The notes below the pieces were generated by a model that saw nothing but the letters and a program-made list of their open reading frames with translations, was not told where the DNA came from and did no database searches. From a virus (Duplodnaviria; Caudoviricetes), in the IMG/VR virus record IMGVR_UViG_3300042549_000862, positions 1 through 46,059 of that record: a stretch of 46,059 nt of DNA; one strand, written 5' to 3'. Position numbers and translations under genes: made by a program. The stretch's first letter is position 1, and each line of letters begins with the position of its first letter. Below, piece after piece: positions 3,419 to 43,682 of this stretch.

Positions 3419-3426
3419 GTCTTACC

Positions 3427-5049
3427 TTATTGATTTACTCTGATGATGACAATACCTGAGCCGCCTGTGCCGCCGGGGTTTCTTGGAGAAACATCTTGCC
3501 CACCGCCGCCTCCGCCACCAGTGTTTGCGGTTCCATTGGAAGCACTTACAATAGAATCAGCACCTGCACCGCCGCCACCAGTGCCGCCGCTACCTCTTGT
3601 CCCACTCCCAGTAGATCCGCCCCCGCCGCCAGCGTAAGTTACAGAAGAACCGGAAAGGCTTGATGCCGTTCCATTGCCACCATTGCCGTTAGCCGATGAA
3701 CCTGCCGCGCTCGCACCACCGCCTCCGCCTCCGTAATAAGGCGCACTGCCTGTGCCATTGCCGCCATTGCCGCCTTCGGACGGCGTGTACCCTCCCAAAT
3801 TCCCTGCGCCGCCAGATGTCCCGCCACTGGCAGACCCTCTTCCGCCACCACCAGATCCACCGGTTCCACCTGTTTCGTTATTTCCAGTTCCTCTTCCGCC
3901 GCCTGTAGATGTAATAGTTGAAAACACAGAATTTGTGCCTGCTGTGTATGCTGCCCCACCAGCTCCGACAGTAACTGTGTATTCACTTCCAGCCGTCACG
4001 GCTAAAGCAGTGCCAGCTCTAAAACCACCAGCCCCTCCTCCTCCACCAACAGAAAGGGCAATTACCCCACTTCCACCACCACCACCGCCAGCAACAACAA
4101 GGTAGTCCACACTCGTCACGCCGACAGGAGCTACCCATTTCTGGGTAGAGTTAAAGACATAGATGGATTGTGATGGAGCTATATAACGTAGGATGACAAT
4201 ACCTGAGCCGCCTGAGCCTGCTGGCTGCTGATTTGTATACCCGCCACCACCACCGCCGCCAGTGTTAATAACGCCATTAGAGCCAGCAGTTGCTGGCGTT
4301 TGTCTTGCACCATTTGCACCACCGCCAATTCCTCCAACCCCAACAACAGTAGTCCCTCCTCCACCACCGCCACCACTGTATGTTACAGACGAGCCAGTAA
4401 TACTTGACGCAGTTCCAGCGCCGCCATTTCCACCTGTGCTTGCAGAACCATTTCGCCCAACAGCGCCAGCGCCACCACCGCCACCACCGCCAGTACCGCC
4501 CGTAGAAACGGCAGTGCCGCCATTGTTTCCTTGAGATGGAGTTGTTGAAGGAGTATTGCCTGTACCAGCAGTTCCCGGAGAATATGGAGATGTTGCTGAC
4601 GTTCCAGCGCCGCCGCCAGAACCGCCATCTAATCCATTTTGGTTTGTGTTGCTAAACGCTCCACCACCACCACCGCCATTTGAAGTAATAGTGCTAAATA
4701 TTGAATTAACACCATTAGATCCTTTGTTGCCAGTTGCCCCAGCCGAGCCTCCAGAACCAACGGTAATTGCATACGTTGCACCCGGAGTCACAGGTAAAGC
4801 AGAGCCAGCTCTAAATCCACCAGCGCCGCCTCCACCAAAATCTCCCCCTCCAGCACCCCCAGCAACCACCAAATAATCAACAGCAGTCACACCAGCAGGT
4901 ACAGTGAAATAACCAGAAGCTAGGAATGTCTGGACAACAGTTACCCCTCTAGGCCAACTGCCAAGATTCCAGATACCCGATGCAAAGCCGGGCGTATACA
5001 GCGGAGAACTCGCGCTGATAATGTTGCCGGGATACCCGTGAATTGCCAT
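3427..5049 (-). CDS. Glycine-rich virion/tail protein with two tandem Gly-rich domains (paralog of 1754-3418)
   Basis: Same domain signature twice (VDYLVVAGG...GGFRAG...FSTITS...GGSGIVI); related N-terminal leader (YPG.I...ASGIW). Confidence 0.85.
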
Positions 5050-19849: not shown

Positions 19850-21388
19850 TTAATAGTATGCGTGCGCCTTGCGCTTAAAAAATGTCGGCTCGTCCTCGTA
19901 GTCGCTTGGCAGGCTGATAAACCCACCTTGGCGGTAGCGCAGAAGCGCTTGTGAGATCGTGTCAACGTAATCGTCATGCTCGCCCACGGGAAAGGCGGCA
20001 AGTTCCTCAATTACTTCTCTTGCCCATCGTGTGTCCGGTGCCCAGACCTTGCCACTGTAAAAGAAGTCAGCGATGGCATTAAGTCGTGCGGTCTTGTCAG
20101 TGGTGCCTCGTTGCTTGCCTCGGCTGGGCGTGAACTCGTCCACTGGAATACCCATTGCCCGAAACTCTTGAATAAGCGGGGCACCTGCTGCCTTTTTCTC
20201 CACAATGAACGCATCTGGCTCCCATTCTTTCCAGTGTTTGTACGCTACCTGCTTTAGCTCAGGAAACGCCATCCTGTCCTTGAACGCGTCCAGCAGTATT
20301 AAGTTAGGCGCACCGCCATCCTCGTCGTTATAGAACACACCCCACGTGGTGCAGGCGCTGTAGTCAGCAGACGTCTTCTGCTCGTGCGCGGTATCCCAGC
20401 TCTGAATAATGTAGTCACACTGCGGCGGCTCGTCCTCTTCCCATATCTTCCACATGCCGCGGTTGATGATGGCTGACGCTTCTGCCGTTGGATTCTGCAT
20501 GTACTGCGCGTTCCAATACCGCGGGTCCATGGCGCTCTTCTTTGCCTTCAAGACCTCCAGCGGCCACTGCTCCGGCCAGAGACTTTTCTCGTTCTCTTCG
20601 CCCTCATGCAGTATGGCAGGCAGCTCCACGATCTCCCATGGGTCACTGTCAGGGTTTTTTATCTGGTAGTCAATCAAGCGACCAGTTAGGTCAACTAACG
20701 ACCAGCGCGTCATAATTACAATGATTGCCCCGTTGGGCATCAAACGCTGCAGGGGACCTTGCTGGAACCATTGCCATGCCGAGTCAAACGCCAAGCGGCT
20801 GTTCGCTTTCATGTCTTGTTCCGAGTGCGGGTCGTCGATAACAAAAAGGTCTGCACCACGACCGGCCAGTGCTCCACCAACACCTGCTGCGTAATACTGG
20901 CCTCCGGCCATTGTGGACCACTTTCCTGCGGCTTTCTGGTCTTCCGCGATCTTGGTGTTTGGGAAAATCTCTTGGTACTCTTCACTGTCAATTAAGTTCT
21001 TTACGCGGCGACCGAAGTCTTCGGAGAGGCTCGCTGTGTGCGTGCCCATGATGATCTTTTTCTCAGGGTAGTGCCCCATGAAATAAGCGGGGAACAGGTA
21101 GGAGGAGAACTCCGACTTACCCATACGTGGTGCAATATTGATAATTACGCGCTTTTTCTTGCCCTCAATCACGTCCGTGAATATCTTTGAGAGCTTCCTG
21201 TGGTGCGGTCCTATCTTGAAACCGGGGTAGACCTGTGTGGCAAAGCCCAAAAGGGACGTTTTTGCCGCAGTCTTTGACGCACGCGCTGCCCTTTCTTCCA
21301 AATCAGACAGCAACTCCGCCTTCTCCTCCGGGGAAAGGGTAGGCAGAACGCGTTTTAACGCGTCAATCTCCTGTTTCGTCAGGTTCAT
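19850..21388 (-). CDS. terL: Terminase large subunit
   Basis: Walker A APRMGKS, Walker B FVIDDPH, MTRW coupling motif, nuclease SWDTA...HDDYVD. Confidence 0.95.
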   Translation of the reverse strand: MNLTKQEIDALKRVLPTLSPEEKAELLSDLEERAARASKTAAKTSLLGFATQVYPGFKIGPHHRKLSKIFTDVIEGKKKRVIINIAPRMGKSEFSSYLFPAYFMGHYPEKKIIMGTHTASLSEDFGRRVKNLIDSEEYQEIFPNTKIAEDQKAAGKWSTMAGGQYYAAGVGGALAGRGADLFVIDDPHSEQDMKANSRLAFDSAWQWFQQGPLQRLMPNGAIIVIMTRWSLVDLTGRLIDYQIKNPDSDPWEIVELPAILHEGEENEKSLWPEQWPLEVLKAKKSAMDPRYWNAQYMQNPTAEASAIINRGMWKIWEEDEPPQCDYIIQSWDTAHEQKTSADYSACTTWGVFYNDEDGGAPNLILLDAFKDRMAFPELKQVAYKHWKEWEPDAFIVEKKAAGAPLIQEFRAMGIPVDEFTPSRGKQRGTTDKTARLNAIADFFYSGKVWAPDTRWAREVIEELAAFPVGEHDDYVDTISQALLRYRQGGFISLPSDYEDEPTFFKRKAHAYY

Positions 21389-21965
21389 TGGTGATTTCCG
21401 TCACATCGGTGACGTCTGTGACGTCAACTATCTGCGCCATGCGCGCTAATTTCTCTTTTATGCGCTCTTCCAGCTCTGAATCCGACAAATCTGTCTTCTT
21501 GACCTCCACGCGGTCAGTGAAAAGCGCTACTTCCGTCACTTTCCCCAACAGTTCTAGGGCGCGAAGCCTGATTTTTGCGTCGGGGTGGGCGGTTTCCTCC
21601 ACCAACTTAGCCACCGCGTAGCCTCTGATCTCCTTGGCCTGCTCAACAAAGTGCCAATCGTAGGCGGTTAGCATGCCGACCAGATGTTTTACTGCTTCTG
21701 GCGTCTCGATCTTGGACAAAGCAGCGCGCTGTTGTTTGGCGTCAGCGGTTTGCGTCATCACCGCAAAGGCTTCGCGTGCGGTTTGCTCTTGTATTTGATC
21801 AAAAACGTCCTCGTCTGGCGTGGCTCCCAGCTCTTCCAGCCACTTCGCCGTTTCGACTTGCGCGTCAATGATCTCGGTGGGGGAAGCTTTTGAGACGAGT
21901 TTAGCCTCTGGCGTGGGGAGCACGTCAGGAGTGTAGATGGTTTCGTCCAACAGGTGCTCTAACAT
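21363..21965 (-). CDS. terS: Terminase small subunit (putative)
   Basis: Immediately upstream of and overlapping TerL; RLRALELLGK...LF.DRVEV motif. Confidence 0.7.
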   Translation of the reverse strand: MLEHLLDETIYTPDVLPTPEAKLVSKASPTEIIDAQVETAKWLEELGATPDEDVFDQIQEQTAREAFAVMTQTADAKQQRAALSKIETPEAVKHLVGMLTAYDWHFVEQAKEIRGYAVAKLVEETAHPDAKIRLRALELLGKVTEVALFTDRVEVKKTDLSDSELEERIKEKLARMAQIVDVTDVTDVTEITNEPDETGD

Positions 21966-21977
21966 AAGCGTAGACCG

Positions 21978-22006
21978 TTGCAGTCACGTTGGGCGGAGTA
22001 TATACT
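21978..22006 (+). promoter_or_regulatory. Sigma70-like promoter for the candidate sRNA
   Basis: TTGCAG(21978)-17 nt-TATACT(22001); the -10 lies in the palindrome AGTATATACT, which could also serve a leftward promoter (TTTACA-18-TATACT) toward terS. Confidence 0.5.
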
Positions 22007-22011
22007 TCATT

Positions 22012-22112
22012 TTGTCGCTGTGTAAATTTTTACACGGTGGCTGTCTCCGTGGTTGGAGATTCTCGCTTGAAGCCATCCGGCTTTGACCCTCGCTCCGGCG
22101 GGGGTCTTTTTT
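22012..22112 (+). ncRNA. Candidate ~100-nt small RNA with four hairpins
   Basis: Between promoter and terminator, no ORF; hairpins CTGTGTAAA/TTTACACGG, TCTCC-GTGGTT-GGAGA, AAGCC-ATCC-GGCTT, then the terminator. Confidence 0.55.
22085..22112 (+). terminator. Rho-independent terminator
   Basis: GACCCTCGC-TCCG-GCGGGGGTC followed by TTTTTT; no plus-strand CDS upstream. Confidence 0.8.
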
Positions 22113-22121
22113 ATCTGTGCA

Positions 22122-22137
22122 TGTCTAATATTAGACA
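22122..22137. promoter_or_regulatory. 16-bp palindromic operator-like site (family B, copy 1)
   Basis: TGTCTAATATTAGACA, perfect palindrome; relatives at 29056 and 43237. Confidence 0.5.
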
Positions 22138-22342
22138 AATTTGATTTTAAATTTTTTAAAAATTTTTGGGGCGTTGTCATGATTTTAAGAAAAATGTGGA
22201 GCGTGGTTGGGGAATAGTGTTCTGTGGCGAAGCCGCCGCGCTGCCATATTTGTGGGGGATGGGGTAGGGTAGGGTCGAGAATGTTGCCATTTTGGTTGTT
22301 GAGCAGAGGTTTGACGCGTTATATGAGAGGGTATGTTTCTCT

Positions 22343-24681: not shown

Positions 24682-26487
24682 ATGCCATACATCAGAAACA
24701 CAGGCGGCAACTCACGCTTCTTCGATGACCTAAGCGTCACCGACAACACGACCGAGCTTGAAACCGTTGAGCTATCCAATGGCATCAACTATTTCTTCAG
24801 CGACGTCAACAGCAACAATCACAGTAGCAACCACATCTTCAGCTTAGTCCCATACTGGGATCGCTTGGCGCGTCACTTCCGCATACTGGTGCAGCAACGC
24901 ACATTCAAGGCACTCATTGACGCCGGTGCGTTTACCAACACGCGCTATGCGCCAAACCCTGCGGACATACGGCCTAGCTACAGCGACGACACCATCCGGC
25001 AAGCGCAAGAGGCACTGACTAACTGCGCCAATGCGATGAGTCAGGTTGTACGCAGGCGCTTCGATGACGCCGATATGTCTGACACGGTGTACTGCAACAA
25101 GGCAAACAAGCTGTTCTCGCAGTTGTATTCCAGTGTTGTGCACGATGTGCTAACTGATTCGCGCAACCTGCGTGAGGCGTACTCATCATCGTTTGACCAC
25201 ACGGCAGGTACAACGGCGCGTCGTGTTGCGCTTGAGATCCTGGGTGAGATGATGCGCCAGACCAGCGTGTATGCAAACATTGGCATACTGTATGCGGTGT
25301 ATCACCTGAAGTTCGGCAACCTGATCGACGGCTCCATCACTAGCTCATTCAACGGCGGTATCAGAGGCTTGCGCCAGACCATGCGTGACATCTTGGAGTT
25401 CGAGGATGGAGAACAAGTCACTGACTACATCATCAACAACTACAACTTCGAGCAGTGCGAGGACTGCGGTGAGTGGGAGTCACACAACTATTCACACCGC
25501 ACCTATCACGACGAGTCAGTGTGTCGTGTCTGCGTCGAAGAGAACTACAGATGGTCTAACTATCATGACCAGTATGTGCACTGCAACTATGCGATGTCTG
25601 TTATTGGTAGTGACGGTGATCGTGACTACATCCACGAAGATGCGCGAGACGATGGCGACTTCGAGTGGGATGAGAACGAGGACTGCTATGTCAATGTCAA
25701 CTACGATAGGCCAAGCAAGTCACTGCGTCGCTATCACAACGCCAAGAACAATGAGTCGTACCGGCTCATACATTCGGATTGGTCAGCGCGCAATCAACGC
25801 TTCTTCGGTATCGAGCTTGAGGTCGAGTGTCGCAAGGGTTATCCCGGCGAGCACGCAGATAAACTCAACGACGCGCTAAACGATGGCAAGCTAGGTGAGC
25901 GTTGCTTCTTCGAGGAGGATGGCAGTCTCTCGCATGGCTTCGAGATCATCACGCAGCCTATGGGTCTTGACTCGCACTATCAGTTCTGGGAGTGGCTCAC
26001 CGACAAGAACCTGACACGCGACTTGCGTAGTCATGACACATCAACCTGTGGCTTACACATCCACGTCAACCGCGACAACATCAAGGACTTGCAGATCAAC
26101 AAGATGTGCGTGTTCATTCATTCGCCTGACAATCGCAACCTGATCAAAGCGATTGCGCGGCGTTACGGTGTTGGCTATGCGTCAATGCACGACAAGAAGT
26201 TAGGCACTGCACATCATGCGTCACGCAGCGACCAGCGTTACGAGGCAGTCAACCTGACTAACCGTCGCACCATCGAGATGCGTATATTCAAAGGCACACT
26301 AAAGCATGAGTCCATGCTTGCTGCCATCGAGTTCACTAACGCACTCATCAAGTTCACCGCACCAGCATCACCGGCTGGCTTCATGCTGAACTCATACCGC
26401 TTCATGGACTACATCAACAGCAACGAGATGAAAGCGGACACGCGCAACCTGCGCAAGTATCTGACCGATGTCGGTTACACATCGTAA
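24682..26487 (+). CDS. Putative amidoligase (COOH-NH2 ligase, glutamine-synthetase-like fold) with long N-terminal extension and CxxC pairs
   Basis: FGIELEVE, EDGSL..GFEIIT.P, TCGLHIHV, RYEAVN, TIEMRIFKGTL; CEDC...CRVC; start after GGAGG. Confidence 0.85.
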   Translation: MPYIRNTGGNSRFFDDLSVTDNTTELETVELSNGINYFFSDVNSNNHSSNHIFSLVPYWDRLARHFRILVQQRTFKALIDAGAFTNTRYAPNPADIRPSYSDDTIRQAQEALTNCANAMSQVVRRRFDDADMSDTVYCNKANKLFSQLYSSVVHDVLTDSRNLREAYSSSFDHTAGTTARRVALEILGEMMRQTSVYANIGILYAVYHLKFGNLIDGSITSSFNGGIRGLRQTMRDILEFEDGEQVTDYIINNYNFEQCEDCGEWESHNYSHRTYHDESVCRVCVEENYRWSNYHDQYVHCNYAMSVIGSDGDRDYIHEDARDDGDFEWDENEDCYVNVNYDRPSKSLRRYHNAKNNESYRLIHSDWSARNQRFFGIELEVECRKGYPGEHADKLNDALNDGKLGERCFFEEDGSLSHGFEIITQPMGLDSHYQFWEWLTDKNLTRDLRSHDTSTCGLHIHVNRDNIKDLQINKMCVFIHSPDNRNLIKAIARRYGVGYASMHDKKLGTAHHASRSDQRYEAVNLTNRRTIEMRIFKGTLKHESMLAAIEFTNALIKFTAPASPAGFMLNSYRFMDYINSNEMKADTRNLRKYLTDVGYTS

Positions 26488-26494
26488 CCGAGTT
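26468..26494. repeat. Variant family A palindrome (copy 5)
   Basis: ATGTCGGTTAC-ACATC-GTAACCGAGTT; same spacing, symmetric changes in both arms, overlaps a stop codon. Confidence 0.6.
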
Positions 26495-26525
26495 TTATTT
26501 CCAACCACACTAAGGAGAACTAACC

Positions 26526-29093: not shown

Positions 29094-29119
29094 CCACTCA
29101 CCAACCACAGGAGAACGTC

Positions 29120-29626
29120 ATGGCTAAAAAGCCCAAGACCCTTACCGTTGCAGATTTACCTCTGACCGTCCAATCCATGCTGGAGCGTGCTATACATACG
29201 CTAAAGCTCATCCACGCCAAGTCCGGCGTGGACTTTGTTATTCACTCCGAGAAGTACGGCATCTCGGAAGGCACGATTGACTTACGCAAAGCAGGCAAGC
29301 ACAAGCGTACCCGCCAGAGCAAGCTGCCTTATGGCACGCTGATCAATTACTACATGCCTTTCATTAAAGACCTGCAGCCTGACGATCTGGTGCAGATTCC
29401 AGTGGGTGACTTTGACGCAGGCGGTCTGCAAGGCGCTATCTCGGCAACCACATCAAAGATGTGGGGCAAGGGCGCAGCAAGCTGCGTGATGAGCGCAGAC
29501 AAGACCATGCTTGAGGTCTGGCGTTTGCCTGCCGGGGTAGAGAAGAGCAGCTTGCTCTCGCCCAGTAACAGCGGTAATCACAACCGCCAGACCGAGGGCG
29601 CGTTCCTGATGCCGCCTGATGATTAA
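29120..29626 (+). CDS. Hypothetical protein
   Basis: MAKKPKTL...; CCAACCACAGGAGA leader; start reassigned from 29024. Confidence 0.75.
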   Translation: MAKKPKTLTVADLPLTVQSMLERAIHTLKLIHAKSGVDFVIHSEKYGISEGTIDLRKAGKHKRTRQSKLPYGTLINYYMPFIKDLQPDDLVQIPVGDFDAGGLQGAISATTSKMWGKGAASCVMSADKTMLEVWRLPAGVEKSSLLSPSNSGNHNRQTEGAFLMPPDD

Positions 29627-30130: not shown

Positions 30131-31153
30131 ATGATTCAATTCCACAAATACTCTTCACCTGACGGCGATGCTGCTCGTATGGCAGCTATCGCTGCTCGTC
30201 AATTCTTCTGGGGTCAGCTCTCATGGGCTGACCTTCAGCCTCGCCTACCTCAAACTCTCCCGCCCAACTTCTTCTACGCGCAAGAGATCGTTGCATGTCT
30301 TGGCATGGAGCGCGCTTGCGCGTTCTACAACCTCTCCGACGAGCAATACTTCTTTCACCTCGGCTTCAACGACAACAACGACTTGCTGCCGTCGTTCATA
30401 CCCACTGGCACGATGGTCTATCAGCCACGCGACTCTGGCTTTTTCTCCGTGATTGAGAACATCATCGTTGCGTCGTACGTTGCGCGCCTGTCGAACAAGG
30501 CACTGGTGATTGACAACACATACAACTGGTGGGGCTACGAGGAAGCGTTCGGTGACATCTTCCGCAACACGTTTGGCTTTAACCTGCTCGACAAGCTACC
30601 CAACAACGCACAGGCTGTGCACTTCGAGTCCATGCGTGACTTTATCTTCAAGGGCAGCGAGGTGTACCTGCGCCAGTTCTATCAGTTCAAGGAAGCCAAG
30701 TACAAAGAGATCGAGAAAGACATCAGGCGCTACTACAAGGGCGACTTGTTTAACGTGTCGCGCTCTGGTCTGGTGTTCGTGCGGGGTGGCGACAAAGCGT
30801 ATGCGGAAGCGCCTGTGCAACCGTACGCCCACTACCTGCACGACATTGAGGCACTGGCTCGGCGTTGCTCACGCACAGTTGTGTTATCTGACCAGTGGGA
30901 ACTGGCACGCGACGTCAGCATGGGCACAACAGCTACCAACATCACGCCCATCGACCACATGGGCTATCACCACAAGTACGGAGAGAAAGTCTCGTGCTTG
31001 CCAATCCTGAAGAACTATCTCGCTATCGTGGACTGCCTTGAGAGCGTGTCATGTCCTTCAGCCAATCTCGTCAACGCTGCACATTGGACACGCAGCAACG
31101 ACACCTTTAACTACAACACCTACAACCCTGTCTATAGGTACGCATTGATATGA
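30131..31153 (+). CDS. Glycosyltransferase, GT23 (NodZ/FUT8 alpha-1,6-fucosyltransferase)-like
   Basis: SGFFS N-terminal motif; GLVFVRGGDKAYAEA (compare FUT8 GVHVRRTDKVGTEA); VVLSD; SANL. Confidence 0.6.
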   Translation: MIQFHKYSSPDGDAARMAAIAARQFFWGQLSWADLQPRLPQTLPPNFFYAQEIVACLGMERACAFYNLSDEQYFFHLGFNDNNDLLPSFIPTGTMVYQPRDSGFFSVIENIIVASYVARLSNKALVIDNTYNWWGYEEAFGDIFRNTFGFNLLDKLPNNAQAVHFESMRDFIFKGSEVYLRQFYQFKEAKYKEIEKDIRRYYKGDLFNVSRSGLVFVRGGDKAYAEAPVQPYAHYLHDIEALARRCSRTVVLSDQWELARDVSMGTTATNITPIDHMGYHHKYGEKVSCLPILKNYLAIVDCLESVSCPSANLVNAAHWTRSNDTFNYNTYNPVYRYALI

Positions 31154-32088
31154 ACGTCGTCGTACAAAACCATTACAGCTTCATCACGACCAACGGTTAC
31201 TTGTTCACGAGCAAGGAAAGCGACATTGGTTACAACCTGTTGAAGCCGTGGAACGATCTGTTCTTGGCGGCTGATGAGCGTGGCATCAAGATGTACACGC
31301 CTGATCAGTTCAATGAGAACGAAGCTGATCTGCTAATCCTGATGGATTACCCTAGCCAACCTGTGCCTGAATCCAAGCGCACGTTCTTTCTCATCTACGA
31401 ACCGGACATGTTGATTCCGAAGAACTGGAACAAGACTTTCCACGACCACTGCGACAAGGTGTTTACGTGGGATGACCGGCTGGTGGACAACCACAAGTAT
31501 TTCAAGCACAACTTTACGACCGACCTGCAAGACGCACGCCCACTGGAGCTAACGCGTGAACAGTTCATGCTGAGAAAGCCTATCGTGCTGATGCAAACGA
31601 GAAAGCAGAACGACCATCCGAACAGCCTGTACGGCAAGCGTGACAACATCATCAGGTTCTTTGAAGGCAAAGCGTCAGGCATGTTTGATTTGTGGGGCAG
31701 GAACTGGGGCGGCTTCCCATCATGGCGTGGCGCAGCGACGAACAAGCTGGAGGTGTTGAAGAACTACCGCTTCTGCATAGCGTTTGAGAACTGTAACCAT
31801 GCGCGTGGCTACATCACAGAGAAGATGCTGGACTGCCTGCTGGCAGGCGTTGTGCCTGTGTACTGGGGCGCGCCTAACGTGACTGACCACGTACCGGCTG
31901 AGTGCTTCATCGACATGCGCCGCTTTAAATTTTACGAAGACCTGCTGGAGTTCTTGAACGACATCACATACGACGACTACATGAAGTACATGGTAGCGAT
32001 GCACGACTACATTGCTTCACCGCAAGCGGAGCAGTTCTACAACACGCACTTCGTTGACATGATGATCAAACACATGGAGGCAGTGTGA
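31150..32088 (+). CDS. Glycosyltransferase family 10 (alpha-1,3-fucosyltransferase-like)
   Basis: KLEVLKNYRFCIAFEN...GYITEKMLDCLLAGVVPVYWGAPNV signature. Confidence 0.9.
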   Translation: MNVVVQNHYSFITTNGYLFTSKESDIGYNLLKPWNDLFLAADERGIKMYTPDQFNENEADLLILMDYPSQPVPESKRTFFLIYEPDMLIPKNWNKTFHDHCDKVFTWDDRLVDNHKYFKHNFTTDLQDARPLELTREQFMLRKPIVLMQTRKQNDHPNSLYGKRDNIIRFFEGKASGMFDLWGRNWGGFPSWRGAATNKLEVLKNYRFCIAFENCNHARGYITEKMLDCLLAGVVPVYWGAPNVTDHVPAECFIDMRRFKFYEDLLEFLNDITYDDYMKYMVAMHDYIASPQAEQFYNTHFVDMMIKHMEAV

Positions 32089-32849
32089 TAGACGGCAAGC
32101 CAACAATCATGATCGGCACACCGATGTACGGTGGTGCATCCTTCATGGAATACACAGACAGCCTGCTGCGCAACGTCAGCTTCTTGGAAAGCAAAGGCAT
32201 CAAAACGCGCTGGCAGTTCATGAACAAAGAGGCGCTGATTACCCGTGCGAGAAACGAGATCGTGCGGTACTTCTTGGACGAGACACGCGACGATTACCTG
32301 ATGTTCATCGACGCAGACATTTGGTTCCCCACGGATGCTATCTACCGCTTGCTGGAGCACAACAAATCTATCTGCTGCGGTGTGTATCCTAAAAAATTTC
32401 TATTTTGGGATCGTATCCGCGAAGCCGCGCTGCGCGGCGAGAAAGATATTGACAAGTTCGGTTGCAGCTACGTGCTAAACGCCGTGGCTGACGATGGCGA
32501 CAAAGTTCCTGTTGGTGACGACGGTCTGGTCGAGGTGCTGCATGGCGGCACAGGGTTCATGTTGATACACAGAGATGTGTTCAAGGCGCTGCGTTTCAAA
32601 GTGCCGACATACCGCACGTCTTTGATTACCAACCCAGCTAACGGTCAGTTCTTGGCGCCCTTAACACGAGAGTTCTTTGGCACGTCCATTACAGAGCTTG
32701 GCCTGTTGCTCTCCGAGGACTATCACTTCTGTGAACTGTGGAAGAAAGAAGGTGGACAGATACACGCCGACCCAACGATAGAACTGCGGCACGTGGGGCA
32801 GCATGTTTATGCAGGTGACCTGATGAGAGCAGGAAGGAACAACACATGA
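32085..32849 (+). CDS. GT-A fold glycosyltransferase (TPMYGG family), paralog 1
   Basis: GTPMYGG, LITRARN, FIDADI (DxD), GTGFMLI, LSEDYHFC, LRHVG. Confidence 0.85.
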   Translation: MIDGKPTIMIGTPMYGGASFMEYTDSLLRNVSFLESKGIKTRWQFMNKEALITRARNEIVRYFLDETRDDYLMFIDADIWFPTDAIYRLLEHNKSICCGVYPKKFLFWDRIREAALRGEKDIDKFGCSYVLNAVADDGDKVPVGDDGLVEVLHGGTGFMLIHRDVFKALRFKVPTYRTSLITNPANGQFLAPLTREFFGTSITELGLLLSEDYHFCELWKKEGGQIHADPTIELRHVGQHVYAGDLMRAGRNNT

Positions 32850-33565
32850 CGCTATCCGTAGCGGTAGTTACAAGCACACGCGGTCGTCCGCTGATTACGC
32901 AGGCGATTGAGAGCGTGAAGGCGCAAACACGAGAGGCACGGCATTATGTCTTCGCACACGGTAAAGATTGTTGGGACGCTGTATCGGCTTCTACAAAGGG
33001 CTGTGACGTTGATGTTGTTTATCTGCCTGCTGCCAACGGAGGTGGTGGTTATGGTATGGCTCCTGTCTTTGCTGCTTCTCCTTTCCTTGTAGATGAGGAC
33101 GTGATTTTCTATCTCGATGACGATAACTGGTACGAGCCAACGCACATCGAAGAACTGGTTGGTATGATCGAAGAGCACGGTCTTGGCTGGGCGTACAGCC
33201 TGCGCCGCATCGTTGACGCTGATGGCAACTGGATATGCGACGACAACTGCGAATCACTGGGGCTGCATCCCAACTCGCATGACCACTATCTTGTGGACAA
33301 CTCTTGCTACGCAGTGCGTAACGACGTGGCGAAAAAGTACAGCCATGAGTGGTATGTACCAGTGGTATCTGACAGGGCGTTCATGCGCGCACTGTGTCAG
33401 GCAAAGGTTCCGTGCGGCACTACAGGCAAGCACTCAGTCAACTACAGGTTATCGCGTGATGGCACAGGAGGCATGACAGCAGACAAGTTTCTAGGCAACA
33501 ACGCATACATGCGCAACAAGATGCCCGACTTTCCGTGGCTACAAAAATCCATCTTTAAATACTAG
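32846..33565 (+). CDS. Glycosyltransferase family 2
   Basis: VAVVTST.GR..I.QAIESV.AQT, FYLDDDNW.EP.H, VSDR. Confidence 0.85.
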   Translation: MTLSVAVVTSTRGRPLITQAIESVKAQTREARHYVFAHGKDCWDAVSASTKGCDVDVVYLPAANGGGGYGMAPVFAASPFLVDEDVIFYLDDDNWYEPTHIEELVGMIEEHGLGWAYSLRRIVDADGNWICDDNCESLGLHPNSHDHYLVDNSCYAVRNDVAKKYSHEWYVPVVSDRAFMRALCQAKVPCGTTGKHSVNYRLSRDGTGGMTADKFLGNNAYMRNKMPDFPWLQKSIFKY

Positions 33566-33573
33566 GAGCAAGC

Positions 33574-34368
33574 ATGACCAAGCTATTCATAGCCACGCCG
33601 ATGTATGGAGGCCAAAACTATGGCTACTTCAATCAGTCCATGTTACAACTGCAAGCGTTGATGGGACAGAACGGCATCAACACCGCTGTGTCGTACCTGT
33701 TTAACGAGTCGCTCATTCAGCGTGCGCGCAACGCACTGGCGCACGGCTTCATGCGTACTGACTTTACGCACATGATGTTCATTGACTCAGACATCCGGTT
33801 CAACCCGCAGGATGTGCTGCGCATGATTCACGCAGACAAGCCGATTATCTGTGGCATCTATCCCAAGAAGGAGATCAACTGGGAGCAGGTGAGAAAGGCT
33901 GCAATAGCTGGCGTACCCGCAGAGAAGCTAAAGCTTTACTCTGGCTCGTTCGTGGTCAACTTGGTTGGCTACGCTGGTCAGGTGCAGGTCAACCTGAATG
34001 AGCCTGTTGAGATATGGAACGGTGGCACTGGCTTCATGCTGATCAAGCGTGAGGTTTTCGAGCAACTGAAAGATAAGCTGCCTAGCTACATCAACGACAC
34101 GAACGATCTGAACGGCAGCATCGGCAACGAGCGCATCGTCGAGTACTTCGCAACCAGCATCGAGCCTATTGGCGAGCGCCTGCTCTCCGAGGACTACCAC
34201 TTCTGCAAGATGTGGCGTGAGAAGTGCGGTGGTCAGGTCTGGGCTGCACCGTGGGCGCAGCTTGGTCACATCGGCACACACATCTTCGACGGCGTGTTGA
34301 TGCCTCCGCCTGAAGATTACGTCAAGCAAGAACAACCTGCAGCACTGCCAGAACGGACGCCTGTATGA
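33574..34368 (+). CDS. GT-A fold glycosyltransferase (TPMYGG family), paralog 2
   Basis: ATPMYGG, ESLIQRARN, FIDSDI, GTGFMLI, LSEDYHFC, LGHIG. Confidence 0.85.
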   Translation: MTKLFIATPMYGGQNYGYFNQSMLQLQALMGQNGINTAVSYLFNESLIQRARNALAHGFMRTDFTHMMFIDSDIRFNPQDVLRMIHADKPIICGIYPKKEINWEQVRKAAIAGVPAEKLKLYSGSFVVNLVGYAGQVQVNLNEPVEIWNGGTGFMLIKREVFEQLKDKLPSYINDTNDLNGSIGNERIVEYFATSIEPIGERLLSEDYHFCKMWREKCGGQVWAAPWAQLGHIGTHIFDGVLMPPPEDYVKQEQPAALPERTPV

Positions 34369-35600
34369 TAAGTACATTCATCCCTGCCTCCGGGCAGGTT
34401 ATTGGTGAGCGCGAGAAAGAGCTGATGCACAACGCTGTTGACGTTGGCTGGCTCACTGCTGGCGCTTACAACGCGCAGTTCGAGAGCAGGCTGGGTGAGT
34501 ATCTAGGTCACGGCTTTGGCGTGCCGCCCATGGTGCGCACCACGAACTCAGGTAGCTCTGCCAACCTGTTGGCGTTTACTGCGTTAACTTCTCCCACTCT
34601 GGGGTCGCGTGCTATCAAGCCCGGTGATGAGGTCATCACTGTGGCCTGCGGCTTTCCCACGACCATCAATCCCATCATCCAGAACGGCTGCGTGCCTGTG
34701 TTTGTGGATGTCAACAGCACGTTGAACATCGACACCAGAGCACTGGAAGCTGCCATCTCGCCCAAGACCCGCGCCATCATGATTGCGCACACACTGGGCA
34801 ACCCATTCAACCTTGAGGAAGTTGTGGCGTTTGCCGAGCGACACAACCTGTGGCTGATCGAAGACTGCTGTGATGCGCTAGGCGCTACGTGGAAAGGCCA
34901 GAAGGTCGGCACGTTCGGTCATCTGGCAACGCTGTCTTTCTTCCCTGCACACCACATCACGATGGGCGAGGGCGGCGCGGTCATCATCAACGACACGACG
35001 CTTGTTCGTGCGGTGGAGTCGTTCAGGGATTGGGGGCGTGACTGCTGGTGCTCACCGGGTAAGGACAACACCTGTGGCAAGCGCTTTGATTGGCAGATGG
35101 GCGAGCTTCCCTGCGGGTACGACCACAAATACATCTTCAGTCATCTTGGCTACAACCTGAAGATCACCGAGATGCAGGCAGCGTGCGGTGTGGCGCAGCT
35201 TGAGCAGGTGGATAACTTTGTCGCAGCGCGCAGGCGCAACTTCGAGTACCTAAACCATGAGCTAAGCGAGCACGCGCTGAACCTTGTCTCGCCCACGGTC
35301 TACCCTGACGCCAACCCTTCATGGTTTGGCTATCCCATCTGGTTGACTGACGTTGACTTTGATCGGGATACGTTCGTGCGCTACCTGAACGACAACAACA
35401 TCGGCACACGTTTGTTGTTTGCTGGCAACGTAACCAAGCAGCCGTACATGCAGGGCAGGAACTATCGCGTAGTGGGTGACCTGCGCATCTCGGACGACAT
35501 TATGAAGAACCTGCTGTGGATTGGCGTGCAGCCTGCGCTGACTGCGGAGATGCTGTCGTACATGGTGGAGAAGATTGACGAATTTATGGGGCACTTCTGA
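34365..35600 (+). CDS. rfbH: CDP-4-keto-6-deoxyglucose 3-dehydrase (RfbH/DdhC/E1)-like
   Basis: NSGSSANL, HTLGNPF, EDCCDALG, SFFPAHHITMGEGG (His at the Schiff-base Lys position), Fe-S motif WGRDCWC..GKDNTC, GYDHKY. Confidence 0.9.
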   Translation: MISTFIPASGQVIGEREKELMHNAVDVGWLTAGAYNAQFESRLGEYLGHGFGVPPMVRTTNSGSSANLLAFTALTSPTLGSRAIKPGDEVITVACGFPTTINPIIQNGCVPVFVDVNSTLNIDTRALEAAISPKTRAIMIAHTLGNPFNLEEVVAFAERHNLWLIEDCCDALGATWKGQKVGTFGHLATLSFFPAHHITMGEGGAVIINDTTLVRAVESFRDWGRDCWCSPGKDNTCGKRFDWQMGELPCGYDHKYIFSHLGYNLKITEMQAACGVAQLEQVDNFVAARRRNFEYLNHELSEHALNLVSPTVYPDANPSWFGYPIWLTDVDFDRDTFVRYLNDNNIGTRLLFAGNVTKQPYMQGRNYRVVGDLRISDDIMKNLLWIGVQPALTAEMLSYMVEKIDEFMGHF

Positions 35601-36607
35601 TGAGAGTAGCTGATTGGATTGCAGAGTACCTGCACAGCATAGGCGTGCGCCGGGTGCATGGGTTGATGGGCGGGGGTGCAGCGGGGCTGAATGATGGTTT
35701 CATCAAGCACCCCGGCATCGAATACATTTGTTATCACCACGAGCAAGGAGCTGGACATGCAGCACTCGGAGAAGCAAAGTACACAGGTAAACTGGCCGTT
35801 GTTAATCCTACAACTGGCTGTGCTGGGACTAACTGTAGTACCAGTGTCCTTAATGGTTATCAGGACGGTGTTCCTGTTCTTTTTCTATCGGGCAACGTAA
35901 GGCTGGATAACACTGCGCAATACCTTAACAAAGAACGGAACATACGTATCAGGCACTACGGCGCACAAGAGCACAACATCGTCAGCACCATGCAGTCCAT
36001 AACTAAAATTGCGTACTTTGTGGACAGCCCTGATCGTGTTGAGGACGCGTTGAAAAGCGCTGTGTTTTTTGCCACGACCGGACGCCCCGGTCCTGTATGG
36101 GTAGACATACCTGCGAATGTGCAGACCGCACAGATGCCGGAACTTCGGAACATCAACTACACAGAGTTTGCCGCTGCTCCTGTTGACGCGCCTGCCGTGT
36201 GGAAAAAAATTTACGAAAGTAGCAGACCGCTAATCGTTGCTGGCGTGGGTATACGGCAAGCAAACCGTGTGGTTGCGTTCAGGGATTTTGTGGAGAAGTA
36301 TCAGATACCGTTCGTCACTACCTATGGCGCACAGGACTACGCGCCGTACGATCACCCACTAAACATTGGCACGCCCGGCGTGCGTGGCAACCGCGCAGGT
36401 AACTTCGCTATGCAGAACGCTGACCTGCTGCTGTTCTTGGGCACGTCACTGGGCGCGCCTGTGGTGGGCTACGACCCCAAGCAGTTCAACCCCACGGCGT
36501 ACAAGATATACGTGGACATCGAGAACGATGAACTAAACAAAGACATCATCCCGATGGATTGGAAAATACATACAAGCGTTCAGAACTTCTTTGGAGCCAT
36601 GCTATGA
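35600..36607 (+). CDS. ThDP-dependent acetolactate-synthase-like (YerE-like) enzyme, N-terminal and middle domains
   Basis: MRVADWIAEYL, HHEQGAGHAA (catalytic Glu), GRPGPVWVDIP, RAGNFAMQNADLLL.LG. Confidence 0.85.
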   Translation: MRVADWIAEYLHSIGVRRVHGLMGGGAAGLNDGFIKHPGIEYICYHHEQGAGHAALGEAKYTGKLAVVNPTTGCAGTNCSTSVLNGYQDGVPVLFLSGNVRLDNTAQYLNKERNIRIRHYGAQEHNIVSTMQSITKIAYFVDSPDRVEDALKSAVFFATTGRPGPVWVDIPANVQTAQMPELRNINYTEFAAAPVDAPAVWKKIYESSRPLIVAGVGIRQANRVVAFRDFVEKYQIPFVTTYGAQDYAPYDHPLNIGTPGVRGNRAGNFAMQNADLLLFLGTSLGAPVVGYDPKQFNPTAYKIYVDIENDELNKDIIPMDWKIHTSVQNFFGAML

Positions 36608-37335
36608 CGCGGCAAGAGTGGGTACAGAAGTGTCAGCACTGGAAGGCCAAGTGGCCTGTGATGCAGCCTGAGTATATGAACTACACGCATGGCCTAAACA
36701 TTTACGCCGTGCTGGACGCCATTCATCAGCACAGCCCGGACGATGCAGTGCTTATGTGCGACGCCGGGAGCGCCTATTACATGGTGCCGCAGGCGTATCG
36801 GTTCAAAGGCACACAGCGGCTGGTGATGAGTCAGTCACAGGGCGACATGGGTTGGGCGCTACCTGCTGCGATTGGCGTGGCGAAAGCGGGAGCCAAGAAT
36901 GTGATCTGCATTGTGGGCGACGGCAGCTTCATGTCCAACATGCAGGAACTGGCAGTGATACGCGAGCATCATCTACCCATCAAGATTGTTATCCTAAACA
37001 ACCGCGGGTATCTCAGTATCAAGAACACGCAGTCCAAGTTTTACGGCAACGTGCATGGCGTGGATGGTGACACAGGGCTGTGGTTTCCTGATTTTTCCAA
37101 ACTGGCAGAGAGCTTCAGAATAAACTTTAAAACCGCGTGGAGCACACCCACGTTGGATAAGTATCTTAGCGCAGCGTTTTCTATAACTAGCCCAAGCATC
37201 ACGGAAGTTCTGTGCGTAAAAGAACAGCTAATCCTCCCATCGCAGGGATTTAAGGACGGCAAGCAAGCGCCTCTGCATGACATGGTGCCTTTCCTGTCTG
37301 ACGAAGAACTAGCCGCCGAGATGGTGAACAAATGA
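36604..37335 (+). CDS. ThDP-dependent enzyme, C-terminal ThDP-binding domain (second subunit)
   Basis: DAGS, MGWALPAAIG, GDGSFMSN...LNNRGYLSI; own GGAG RBS and ATGA overlap. Confidence 0.85.
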   Translation: MTRQEWVQKCQHWKAKWPVMQPEYMNYTHGLNIYAVLDAIHQHSPDDAVLMCDAGSAYYMVPQAYRFKGTQRLVMSQSQGDMGWALPAAIGVAKAGAKNVICIVGDGSFMSNMQELAVIREHHLPIKIVILNNRGYLSIKNTQSKFYGNVHGVDGDTGLWFPDFSKLAESFRINFKTAWSTPTLDKYLSAAFSITSPSITEVLCVKEQLILPSQGFKDGKQAPLHDMVPFLSDEELAAEMVNK

Positions 37336-38279
37336 AGATAGCTATTCTTGGAGCTACCAGCCAGATTGCAAAAGACTTCATCGTCCAGTGCAACGATGAG
37401 CACACGCTCTTGCTGTTCTCGCGCAACCCTGACAGCGTGCAGCAGTTCATGTTCGACATAGGCTACCGAAGCTTCACGTCCATACACTACAACGTCTTGC
37501 GTGGCAGGCAGTTCTACGTTGACGCGGTGATTAACTTCGTGGGCATAGGCGACCCGGCGAAGCTGGCGACTATGCAGGACGCCATGTTTGACCTGACCCG
37601 AACGTACGATGAGTTAGCGTTGCAGTTCATGCGCCGCCCTGACACCAAGTACATCTTTATCTCCAGCGGGGCAGCGTACGGCGGCACGTTCGACAAGCCA
37701 GCAAGACAAGACACGCCTGTCACGTATCCGCAGCATATTGAGAAGCAGCACTATTATGGGCTGGCGAAGTGGCTGGCTGAGATCAAGCATCGCACGCTGT
37801 TTGAGAAACACATAGTGGACTTGCGTGTGTTCAACTACTTCAGCCATACGCAATCGTTGAGCTTGAAGTACATGATCATGGAGATGATGAACGCTATCCT
37901 GCGCCAGCGTGGAACAGATCAAACGCCGTACGCTGTTGATGACACTCCGTTAACACGTGACTTCATCGGACCCAAAGATTTGCACCGCTTGATCTTTTCT
38001 ATCTTGAACGCGCCGGGGTTCAACGGTACAGTGGATGCCTTTACCAAAGAGCCTGTTAGCAAGCACACACTGCTTAACGCGCTGAAAGAAATTTATGGGC
38101 TGGAGTACGTGTTTACTGAACGCATCGTTATTGCGCCCACGGGCGTGAAACCAAACTACTATTCACAAAACTACAAAGCGTTAGAGCTTGGCTACCAACC
38201 ACAGATGACCTCCCTCGAAACCATTTTCAAGGAAGCAGATCAACTGCTGGAGCGCCATGACCCCGGAAGCCAAAGTTAA
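37332..38279 (+). CDS. NAD(P)-dependent nucleotide-sugar epimerase/reductase (extended SDR)
   Basis: ILGATSQIA Rossmann motif, ISSGAAYG, YGLAK (YxxxK), LRVFN, RDFI. Confidence 0.85.
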   Translation: MKIAILGATSQIAKDFIVQCNDEHTLLLFSRNPDSVQQFMFDIGYRSFTSIHYNVLRGRQFYVDAVINFVGIGDPAKLATMQDAMFDLTRTYDELALQFMRRPDTKYIFISSGAAYGGTFDKPARQDTPVTYPQHIEKQHYYGLAKWLAEIKHRTLFEKHIVDLRVFNYFSHTQSLSLKYMIMEMMNAILRQRGTDQTPYAVDDTPLTRDFIGPKDLHRLIFSILNAPGFNGTVDAFTKEPVSKHTLLNALKEIYGLEYVFTERIVIAPTGVKPNYYSQNYKALELGYQPQMTSLETIFKEADQLLERHDPGSQS

Positions 38280-41433: not shown

Positions 41434-41667
41434 ATGGCAACCAGAGACTACAAGAAGGAGTACAAGCGTGACTTACAGACCGGCAAGTCCGGTCCCGGTA
41501 GTGCCCAGCATGAGCGCCAGAGAGCGCGTCGCATGTACGACAAGATGGGTATTGACCGTAGCGGGAAAGACATCGACCACATCAAACCACTGCGCAAGGG
41601 CGGCAAGTCAAGCAAAGGCAACCTGCGGCTGCGCGCAAAGAGCACTAATCAGGGAGACAATAAATAA
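41434..41667 (+). CDS. Small HNH-endonuclease-like protein
   Basis: RDYKKEY...DIDHIKPLRKGG...NLRL....N. Confidence 0.75.
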   Translation: MATRDYKKEYKRDLQTGKSGPGSAQHERQRARRMYDKMGIDRSGKDIDHIKPLRKGGKSSKGNLRLRAKSTNQGDNK

Positions 41668-43241
41668 TGCAGATCATTGACAACAAGTTATTTCTCTTAC
41701 GCACACGTAATCCTGACAAATTTTCAATCATTCCTAAACATAAAATCGTTGGCGAAAAAGATGGTATCTATGAAATCGTTGTTCACTTCGGCTTGGACGA
41801 GGCGCGGGTCTTACGCAATCTGGGCGTCAAGAAGGTTGTCTCGCCCATTGATGGCAAATATGATTGGCCGGGACGCTTCCAGCCTTTTGCGCACCAACGT
41901 GAAACTGCGTCGTTCTTGACGCTAAACCGCCGTGCCTTCGTGTTCTCTGAACCCGGCACCGGCAAAACCATGTCAGCGCTTTGGGCGGCTGACTACCTGA
42001 TGAAGATAGGCGAGGTGCGGCGCGTACTCATACTGTGTCCGCTGTCCATCATGACCTCGGCGTGGATGCAGGACTTGAACAACAGCATCATCCACAGAAG
42101 CGCCATCGTGGCACACCACGCGCAGGCCGCACGCAGGCTGGAGATGGTCAGAGGTGACTACGAGTTCGTCATCACGAACTATGATGGGTTGAACCTGATC
42201 GCTGATGAAGTTGTTGAGGACGGCACGTTTGATCTGGTGATTGTCGATGAAGCCAACGCTTACAAGAACGTCAGCACCAAGCGCTTCAAGTCACTGCAAA
42301 AGATTCTCAAACCTTCGTCGTATCTCTGGATGATGACCGGGACGCCTGCTGCGCAGTCACCGCTGGATGCGTATGGGCTGGCAAAGCTCGTCAACCCCAC
42401 GTCAGTGCCGAAGTTCTATACCGGCTGGCGCGACAAGGTGATGTATCAGGCAACCCGCTTCAAGTGGCTACCCAAGCCCACGGCAGGCGACGATGTACAC
42501 GACGCGCTGCAGCCTGCCATCCGGTTCACAAAAGAGCAGTGCCTTGACCTGCCCCCGGTCGTTACCGTCACACGCGAGGTGCCGCTGACTCCACAGCAGA
42601 ACAAGTACTACGCGCTGTTAAAAGACCGCATGGTGATGCAGGCAGCAGGCGAAACCATCACGGCAGTCAACGCCGCGGCAGGGGTCAACAAGCTGCTCCA
42701 GATCAGCGCAGGCGCGGCCTACACGGACAACGCCGAGGTGGTGGAGTTCGACTGCTCCCCACGCTTGAACGTGCTCTTGGAGGTGCTGGAAGAGACTACA
42801 CGCAAGGTGCTGGTCTTTGCGCCGTACCGGCACAGCATTGACACCATCACGGACTTTCTACAAAAGCATCAGATCGACTGCGCGCAGATACACGGTGACG
42901 TGACACCTGCTAAACGAACGCTGATCTTCAAACAATTTCAGACTACTCAGTCACCTCGTGTACTGGTCATTCAGCCACAGGCTGCGTCGCACGGCGTGAC
43001 CTTGACCGCTGCGGATACCGTGGTGTTCTGGGGGCCTGTGATGAGCGTGGAGACTTACTTGCAGTGCTGCGCACGCACTGACCGCGTGGGGCAGAACTCA
43101 GACAAGGTGACCATCGTACACATCGAAGGTAGCGAACTTGAAAAGAGAATGTTTAAAAGATTGGCAAGCCGCGTGGATGACCATGCGTTGCTAGTCAAGC
43201 TATATGAAGAAGAGCTTGCAGGTTCTAAAAGCCAGTTGTAA
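41667..43241 (+). CDS. SNF2-family helicase
   Basis: PFAHQ, EPGTGKT, VDEA, MTGTP, HGVTLTAA, ARTDRVGQ. Confidence 0.92.
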   Translation: MQIIDNKLFLLRTRNPDKFSIIPKHKIVGEKDGIYEIVVHFGLDEARVLRNLGVKKVVSPIDGKYDWPGRFQPFAHQRETASFLTLNRRAFVFSEPGTGKTMSALWAADYLMKIGEVRRVLILCPLSIMTSAWMQDLNNSIIHRSAIVAHHAQAARRLEMVRGDYEFVITNYDGLNLIADEVVEDGTFDLVIVDEANAYKNVSTKRFKSLQKILKPSSYLWMMTGTPAAQSPLDAYGLAKLVNPTSVPKFYTGWRDKVMYQATRFKWLPKPTAGDDVHDALQPAIRFTKEQCLDLPPVVTVTREVPLTPQQNKYYALLKDRMVMQAAGETITAVNAAAGVNKLLQISAGAAYTDNAEVVEFDCSPRLNVLLEVLEETTRKVLVFAPYRHSIDTITDFLQKHQIDCAQIHGDVTPAKRTLIFKQFQTTQSPRVLVIQPQAASHGVTLTAADTVVFWGPVMSVETYLQCCARTDRVGQNSDKVTIVHIEGSELEKRMFKRLASRVDDHALLVKLYEEELAGSKSQL

Positions 43242-43252
43242 AATCTTTGACA
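43237..43252. promoter_or_regulatory. 16-bp palindromic operator-like site (family B, copy 3)
   Basis: TGTAAAATCTTTGACA followed by GCAGTACC and a CCAACCACAGGAG leader, as at 29056-29113. Confidence 0.5.
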
Positions 43253-43277
43253 GCAGTACCCAACCACAGGAGTAAAC

Positions 43278-43682
43278 ATGAATACAGAGATTATCCCTAT
43301 GGATAAGCTCGCCAAGGCGTACTTGAAGATACGCACAGCAAAAAGCGAGCTGACCCAAAAATACGAAGACGAGATGGCCGCGCTGGACGAGCAGGAGAAC
43401 CAGCTTGAGTCGGCTATGAAAGATCAGATGCTGGCGCTGGGCACGAAGTCCATGCGCACTGACGCTGGCACCGTGATGCTTGGCACCAAAACCCGCTACA
43501 CCACACAAGATTGGGGGTCGTTCAAAGAGTTTGTCATTCAGAACGATGCCGTCGATCTTCTGGAACGCCGTATTGCCCAGCGCAACATGGCTCAGTTCCT
43601 TGAAGAAAATCCCGGCAAAGTACCGCCGGGGCTTAACGCTGATACGCAGTATCAGATTAGTGTTCGTAAACCTTCTAAGTGA
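43278..43682 (+). CDS. Conserved replication-module hypothetical protein
   Basis: KLAKAYLKIR...SMRTDAGT...DWGSF..F...LLERRI...PPGL. Confidence 0.8.
   Translation: MNTEIIPMDKLAKAYLKIRTAKSELTQKYEDEMAALDEQENQLESAMKDQMLALGTKSMRTDAGTVMLGTKTRYTTQDWGSFKEFVIQNDAVDLLERRIAQRNMAQFLEENPGKVPPGLNADTQYQISVRKPSK

Follow-up and report, generated by a model that had tools for sequence, protein, structure and literature searches.

Gene organization at the locus

The window analysed is the whole of IMG/VR record IMGVR_UViG_3300042549_000862, a 46-kb tailed-phage sequence (46,059 nucleotides) that is ~73% complete, near-complete relatives measuring 61-67 kb. Structural genes are read leftward from position 21965; rightward from 22393 lie small early genes and the genes for an amidoligase, an amidotransferase, DNA polymerase A and an SNF2 helicase, with gene starts as given by a simple in-house ORF caller. 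The gene directly upstream of terL (21363..21965, minus strand), used as an anchor in this work, is named terS by position only and has no Pfam match over the cut-off and no PHROG match. The gene at 43691, called SSB in the initial annotation, likewise lacks a Pfam match, and its PHROG families are of unknown function. Judging from translations examined by eye, the interval 30131-38279 contains apparent glycosyltransferase and nucleotide-sugar enzyme genes, possibly involved in DNA or surface modification. Two long glycine-rich paralogues with internal repeats (1754-5049) probably encode virion fibre or surface proteins.

The terS anchor gene was found in no cultured phage, and a scan of genome contigs returned no prophage or host relative. 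The nearest terL relatives are HTVC023P-type phages, DSL-LC04 and MinM2 (45-51% identity); a pattern search for the cassette described below found none in a 19-23 kb stretch of each of three such genomes. Searches for a tyrosine integrase (PF00589), a serine recombinase (PF07508) and an S24 repressor (PF00717) gave no match in the window and four near-complete relatives.

A promoter-hairpin-terminator cassette between the divergent gene blocks

A predicted sigma-70-type promoter, TTGCAG-17-TATACT (21978..22006, plus strand; hexamers 21978-21983 and 22001-22006), faces the early genes. Both hexamers and the 17-nt spacer are present as initially annotated, but a consensus promoter scan did not list this promoter and listed instead an overlapping leftward one, TTTACA-18-TATACT (21997..22026, minus strand), assigned to the late operon. 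The two have a -10 palindrome, AGTATATACT, in common. From the rightward promoter a small RNA of ~100 nt is predicted to be made (22012..22112, plus strand), its 5' end being inferred from the -10 spacing. In the computed fold, hairpin 1 (22014..22041) is followed by hairpin 2 (22043..22060), which carries the presumptive seed, composed of the anti-Shine-Dalgarno (anti-SD) segment UGUCUCC and GUGGUUGG, with the anti-SD in the stem. Then come hairpin 3 (22069..22084), which is variable and missing in some relatives, and a one-directional intrinsic terminator (22085..22112), which a terminator scan listed as a stem at 22085-22106 plus a U-tract, in agreement with the earlier reading.

The four hairpins proposed from inspection were borne out, since the plus strand has a minimum free energy of -50.9 kcal/mol (z -7.24, with 0/200 shuffles as low); the minus strand of the same region folds at -32 (z -3.87). 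Hairpin 2 exists as described, except that the minimum free energy structure adds one G-U pair and leaves a 4-nt UGGU loop in place of the exposed GUGGUU. The description of the region as devoid of ORFs also needs correction, two mechanical ORFs (51 and 57 aa) overlapping it, but in the clade defined below ATG ORFs of at least 50 aa span the seed in only 6 (plus strand) and 3 (minus strand) of 28 units. The possession of its own promoter and terminator suggests that the RNA would be a primary transcript. Assembled contigs from four of seven runs are uninformative on strand and ends: those of X1 and X7 span the cassette and both flanks, those of X5 and X6 essentially do not, and X1 and X6 are probably DNA.

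Just beyond the terminator lies a 16-bp palindrome (22122..22137; TGTCWA-n4-TDGACA), present in 78 of 100 units from relatives and likely a candidate DNA site. The palindrome is followed, up to 22300, by A/T tracts and G runs, and the segment 22122-22300 could hold a packaging or origin signal.

Conservation of the cassette

Loci of relatives were collected by terS protein scans (best 80 of 172 and best 80 of 100), pattern scans and an amidotransferase scan. Counting duplicates, terS is present in 208 sequences, of which 15 do not extend far enough to be tested. In 189 of the other 193, as judged by a strict terminator rule, the cassette and the gene upstream of terL are arranged head-to-head; the four that fail this rule have a similar stem by eye. 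One hundred distinct units were represented among the relatives' cassettes. A -10 hexamer of the form TAnnnT was located by script in all of them (TATACT in 57), and the -35 of the RNA promoter matches only 3/6 positions in 69. On the minus strand, 81 units have an overlapping TAnnnT, and in 53 it is accompanied by a -35 that matches at least 4/6 positions. The plus strand is the more stable fold in 87 units. Neither a minus-strand terminator nor an A-run before the stem was found in any of the 100, and G-U pairs number 362 on the plus strand versus 49 on the minus, a difference partly due to composition. An anti-SD-like motif is present in 96 units.

The sequence GTGGTTGG is kept in 28/28 units with a terS identity of at least 69% and in 0/72 others. 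Some of these 28 units (hereafter the clade) were first found by motif search, most of them also by terS. An alignment was made of 21 clade units, leaving out seven with an inserted extra hairpin. Among these 21 sequences both partners vary in 14/29 pairs (0/500 shuffles as high), and the paired share of cells is 91% in the real alignment but no more than 49% in slid controls. These controls are generous because the structure is the window's own fold and the sequences are related. Two-sided changes affect 5/11 pairs in hairpin 1 and 2/5 in hairpin 2, where TCTCC/GGAGA is replaced by the compensatory CTTCC/GGAAG. Thus helices change in pairs, and CCGTGGTTGG is invariant throughout the alignment. 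A model built from the clade matches the unit at the same position in other lineages (E 4e-5 to 0.6) and gives weak matches in other phage families. A second match in the window (38165-38238, E 0.015) is the antisense of a coding copy of CCAACCAC (see below) and was taken as chance.

Several variants of the arrangement were observed. In L202, L157, L039, L040, L203, L050 and L041 the seed hairpin is followed by an additional one containing a second CTCC/GGAG stem, and two anti-SD segments per RNA are found in L258, L272, L259, L254 and G006. Similar promoter/anti-SD/terminator units occur without this terS (L137:10001-10092, L139:10001-10078, L132:10001-10091 and L136:134-225), and in L137 the match between the unit and the phage's own leaders extends over 10-11 nt. 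A 47-58 kb group of amidoligase-carrying phages also has short units made up of an anti-SD and a terminator (L167:12044-12127, L168:11664-11746 and L164:11828-11890).

These comparisons bear on whether the minus strand could be the functional one. The motif would then be a further sense copy of the leader, serving as the ribosome-binding site of an extended terS, as a mini-ORF of a start and a stop, or as a binding site of some phage protein, and the fold of the plus strand would be secondary. An SD followed by a start and an immediate stop is indeed found in 21/28 clade units, and an SD plus start codon in 65/100 units under a loose rule. However, the frame is open into terS in only 12/100 units, and 34 of the 72 units outside the clade are without such a start, which is therefore not family-wide. 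Moreover, the motif is upstream of the -35 of the leftward promoter, so that this promoter would not transcribe it; the terminator and the G-U pairs belong to the plus strand; and the start-stop arrangement would follow in any case were hairpin 1 to pair with the -35 arm as well as with target AUGs. We consider a functional minus strand improbable. A conserved peptide, or a longer terS, as a family feature was rejected from the ORF and frame counts across units.

Four units have no anti-SD at all. L214, L083, L247 and L071, all from one lineage, keep promoter and terminator without it and may represent a natural loss of the seed. Retention of promoter and terminator in four such units, together with a promoter directed at the early genes and overlapping the late promoter, would also suit a cis-acting element, either an early leader (an attenuator or a put-like antitermination RNA) or a terminated promoter acting on the late promoter by interference. 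This would leave unexplained why the seed tracks distant leaders such as those of ORF 43278 and SNF2 (see below). There is, in addition, no prominent alternative antiterminator fold, as the minimum free energy and centroid structures agree. An element of this sort appears highly improbable.

A leader octamer complementary to the seed

The octamer CCAACCAC is found in eight copies in the window versus 1.91 expected (0/100 shuffles reach 8). Four of the six plus-strand copies sit 0-7 nt before GGAG plus ATG, positions that make up 0.87% of the region (post-hoc P about 8e-8). As initially annotated, the octamer is 5' of the SD at the amidoligase, amidotransferase, 29120 and 43278 genes, and the 12-bp pairing with one G-U noted at 26497 was verified. 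Another copy, at 22203, is present as reported; its offset is the same in only 5/28 clade units, and it was rejected as a second seed.

An accessibility-corrected (RNAup-like) pairing scan was run over 67 leaders, and the four leaders just named ranked 1, 2, 4 and 6. The predicted targets, all on the plus strand, are the leaders of the class II amidotransferase gene (PF13230; 26497..26528, start 26526), of ORF 29120 (29101..29122), of the SNF2 helicase gene (41645..41669, start 41667), each with a net energy of -10.3 kcal/mol, of the amidoligase gene (PF12224; 24661..24684, start 24682; -8.8) and of ORF 43278 (43260..43280; -7.4), which together take ranks 1-4 and 6; the leader at rank 5 engages a different segment of the RNA. 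The SNF2 leader, CTAATCA-GGGAGACA, had not been on the initial list and would make a fifth target. ORF 29120 is the first gene after a TTGACA-16-TATTAT promoter, and ORF 43278 the first after TTGCAG-17-TAAAAT (43216-43244, read by eye). Net pairing energies are moderate (-7 to -10 kcal/mol). The predicted duplexes cover GGAG in 5/5 targets, and the 3' arm of hairpin 1 is predicted to pair with the spacer and start codon of some of them.

Other elements accompany the early genes. A hairpin with a T-tract (26471-26500) separates the amidoligase stop from the amidotransferase leader and could be an attenuator or a processing site. A 24-bp imperfect palindrome is repeated five times upstream of early genes (22344, 22791, 23149, 24632 and 27526), one copy being directly 5' of the amidoligase leader; the array resembles operators or the ESAS repeats considered below.

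Covariation of seed and leaders

Covariation between RNA and leaders in relatives had been set beforehand as the test by which the antisense interpretation might be refuted. The test came out for pairing. CCAACCAC is found in 13/78 early leaders of phages with the GUGGUUGG loop versus 1/310 of the others. For a comparison across lineages, the 25 units (of 100) with at least 5.4 kb of early region were used, near-duplicates and L214, which has no anti-SD, being left out, and were grouped by eye into 15 seed types. Own leaders fit the seed better than foreign ones (permutation p=1e-5 on three measures), and the 105 reciprocal contrasts are positive in 96-99 cases. An exact run of at least 8 nt is found in 110/388 comparisons with own early leaders (28%), 1166/8714 with foreign early leaders (13%) and 8/145 with own late leaders (6%). 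For example, the RNA complement GGAGAAAGCA goes with leaders AGGAGAAAGCA in G006, G007 and L244, and comparable seed/leader matches are CCACCAAGGAGAAA in L254 and AACCTCAAGGAGAA in L065. Phages whose seed differs from that of the window thus have leaders that fit their own version of it, which supports the antisense interpretation.

Eight branch-disjoint pairs drawn on the terS tree were all positive by run length (8/8, p=0.004) but only 6/8 were so by duplex energy (p=0.14), and late leaders, as a control on the same pairs, gave no signal (p=0.37 and 0.95). Single orthologous leaders also track the seed over seven lineages, of which two are represented by loci lacking this terS and four belong to a single subclade (ORF 43278, p=0.001; SNF2, p=0.004 and 0.0004). 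Some measures are less clear-cut. The early/late contrast weakens with longer stretches (42/190 vs 11/97), and G-U-compatible changes at the flanks of the matches are not enriched (own 24/99 and 32/88 vs foreign 428/1608 and 511/1612). In G006 5/24 matches are on the opposite strand, in G004 there are only 2/33 early matches, and, scored by run length, L069's own leaders come 12th and 15th among 15.

Inside the clade the covariation signal is modest (p=0.017, 0.050 and 0.27, for genomes that are not independent). Orthologues of the amidoligase, amidotransferase, 29120 and 43278 genes retain the octamer in their leaders across the clade, down to ~40% protein identity, except in L205, which lost it at the 29120 orthologue. 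The RNA of this CTTCC variant reads CUUCC, and its amidotransferase and 29120 SDs read GGAA, a fitting change with the caveat that GGAA is also common in unrelated orthologues; a viral scan for this variant gave only short true relatives. In L195 (G018), a contig without an RNA locus, the leader of the ORF 43278 orthologue is CCAACCACGGAGA, an unbulged complement of the 13-nt seed.

Matches in leaders centre on positions -13 to -5 of the start codon. Were the RNA to pair with leaders and activate or stabilise the messages, for instance by shielding 5' ends, the invariant pairing upstream of the SD in the clade would be accounted for, as would pairing at 29101, which is a predicted transcript 5' end. 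Nevertheless, the duplexes cover GGAG in every one of the five targets and, family-wide, 87/110 matches contain GGA and peak over the SD, making activation very unlikely.

Comparison with known RNAs

No Rfam family covers the cassette in the window or in 14 relatives. The initial annotation had likened its logic to that of C4 of P1 and of the P4 CI RNA. That logic is shared, but the C4 model and architecture are not found: RF01695 has no match at gathering score in the window and is not among the six matches with E up to 10. The loops of P1/P7 c4 pair over the RBS and upstream of it, the upstream part giving phage-specific specificity, and the RNA, which RNase P releases from a longer precursor, functions in immunity and lysogeny (PMC5320573). 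The present RNA is, by computation only, a similar short multi-hairpin phage RNA pairing with its phage's own mRNA over the RBS and upstream. It differs in having its own promoter and terminator and about five dispersed predicted targets, and in using one contiguous predicted seed in hairpin 2 instead of two loops (a' and b') on one target. It also differs in its genomic setting, where no integrase was detected; P1 is itself a non-integrating phage.

The highest-scoring resemblances in Rfam lie elsewhere. RF02278 scores 25.8 bits in the window versus a gathering score of 50, only UGUCUCC and the terminator aligning. Among the 14 relatives it reaches 29.9 bits at best, and RF02278, ncS54 or anti-hemB matches are found in 5/14. 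Betaproteobacterial toxic or double-hairpin sRNAs (ncS03, ncS05, ncS27 and ncS62) are described as having a UGUCUCC anti-RBS and a terminator and as predicted to cover RBSs (PMC5688073; for RF02278 also PMC4603805). UGUCUCC and an intrinsic terminator are shared by the cassette RNA, whereas the RF02278 sRNAs are host-encoded, 57-92 nt long and have predicted targets in host metabolism (PMC5688073). The resemblance to such Burkholderia CU-rich sRNAs is thus weak and below Rfam thresholds. The CU-rich anti-RBS stretch is present in the family, with a predicted unpaired probability of 0.93 in 68 units outside the clade vs 0.22 in the clade, where it is paired.

Might the RNA then be a general anti-SD RNA acting on host mRNAs (shut-off or metabolic rewiring), like the Burkholderia CU-rich double-hairpin RNAs, and its match to phage leaders be incidental? 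The sub-threshold Rfam matches are all CU-rich betaproteobacterial sRNAs, and outside the clade the anti-SD is predicted open in 68 units. On the other hand, the flanks of the seed fit own early leaders better than foreign ones, and do not so fit own late leaders; in the clade, moreover, the anti-SD is locked behind a CCAACCAC-specific loop. A host-directed RNA therefore seems unlikely.

A parallel to the leader motif is offered by cluster K mycobacteriophages, whose start-associated sequences (SAS/ESAS) form an extended RBS motif of non-structural genes, with one inverted copy away from gene starts and inverted repeats at some leaders; whether the binder is RNA or protein is left open there (PMC3203893). 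In like manner, the window has four copies at leaders, each on the strand of the early genes, a single conserved copy in inverted orientation within the cassette and, comparable to the ESAS repeats, five palindromes upstream of early genes; the poorly conserved copy at 22203 is also inverted. The host group is different, however, and by eye the motif differs from the 13-bp cluster K consensus. Unlike SAS/ESAS as described, the inverted copy is enclosed by a predicted promoter and a terminator, and it changes in concert with the leaders. VpdS of VP882 and PreS of lambda are further phage sRNAs that act by base-pairing; both are from temperate phages, Hfq-dependent and largely host-directed (PMC12197685). 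The cassette RNA resembles them in being phage-encoded and predicted to base-pair; the accessible part of that source describes no sRNA mirroring a shared leader of a phage's own early genes, and the portion available of PMC5737381 has nothing on this motif. A literature search, conducted mostly at the level of listings, showed no description of the cassette, and three supplements of PMC10690425 may hold it as an unnamed candidate.

Discussion

Strong comparative evidence of co-evolution with predicted targets indicates a real, conserved and uncatalogued phage RNA cassette. Since its sequence mirrors the phage's own early and middle leaders lineage by lineage, it likely specifies a small RNA that would turn those genes down together. 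On the strength of the sequence comparisons, we think it probable that the cassette makes a trans-acting antisense RNA of ~100 nt that would block translation of these genes. In the clade, the GUGGUU loop would make the first contact by pairing with CCAACCAC, 5' of the SD; the stem of hairpin 2, being short, would then open, allowing UGUCUCC to cover GGAG. In some targets pairing may reach the start codon, and the 30S subunit would be kept off. Opening of the 13-nt seed has a computed cost of about 8.6 kcal/mol, which would limit action to leaders bearing the octamer and spare late and host SDs. Loop-initiated stem opening, as first proposed, fits the clade's fold; in the other lineages (68 units) the anti-SD is predicted to be open between hairpins, and the mechanism is therefore a clade variant and not the family rule. 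As ORFs 29120 and 43278 each come first after a predicted promoter, entire operons could be affected through polarity.

If the RNA does act by antisense pairing, its likeliest role is an early-to-late translational brake in the lytic cycle, because the RNA promoter and the late promoter use one -10 palindrome and the searches revealed no integrase; we give this role a little less than an even chance, and timing is the weakest step of the model. Dosage control and exclusion of superinfecting kin are alternative roles. Shut-down of early genes in lytic phages that use host RNA polymerase is usually credited to proteins.

The sequence record points to an RNA-coded regulon whose co-evolution is visible at single orthologous genes across lineages. 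It also supplies natural matched and mismatched RNA-leader pairs, directly testable in E. coli reporters, and a concrete hypothesis for the binder of the mycobacteriophage start-associated sequences (PMC3203893). Tentatively, a large family of uncultured, non-integrating phages may accomplish its early-to-late switch by one antisense RNA made from the back of the late promoter. The seed and the early and middle leaders would form a lineage-specific, co-evolving address code, which might serve in addition to shut off related phages entering the cell, and start-associated sequences elsewhere among phages could have a similar explanation.
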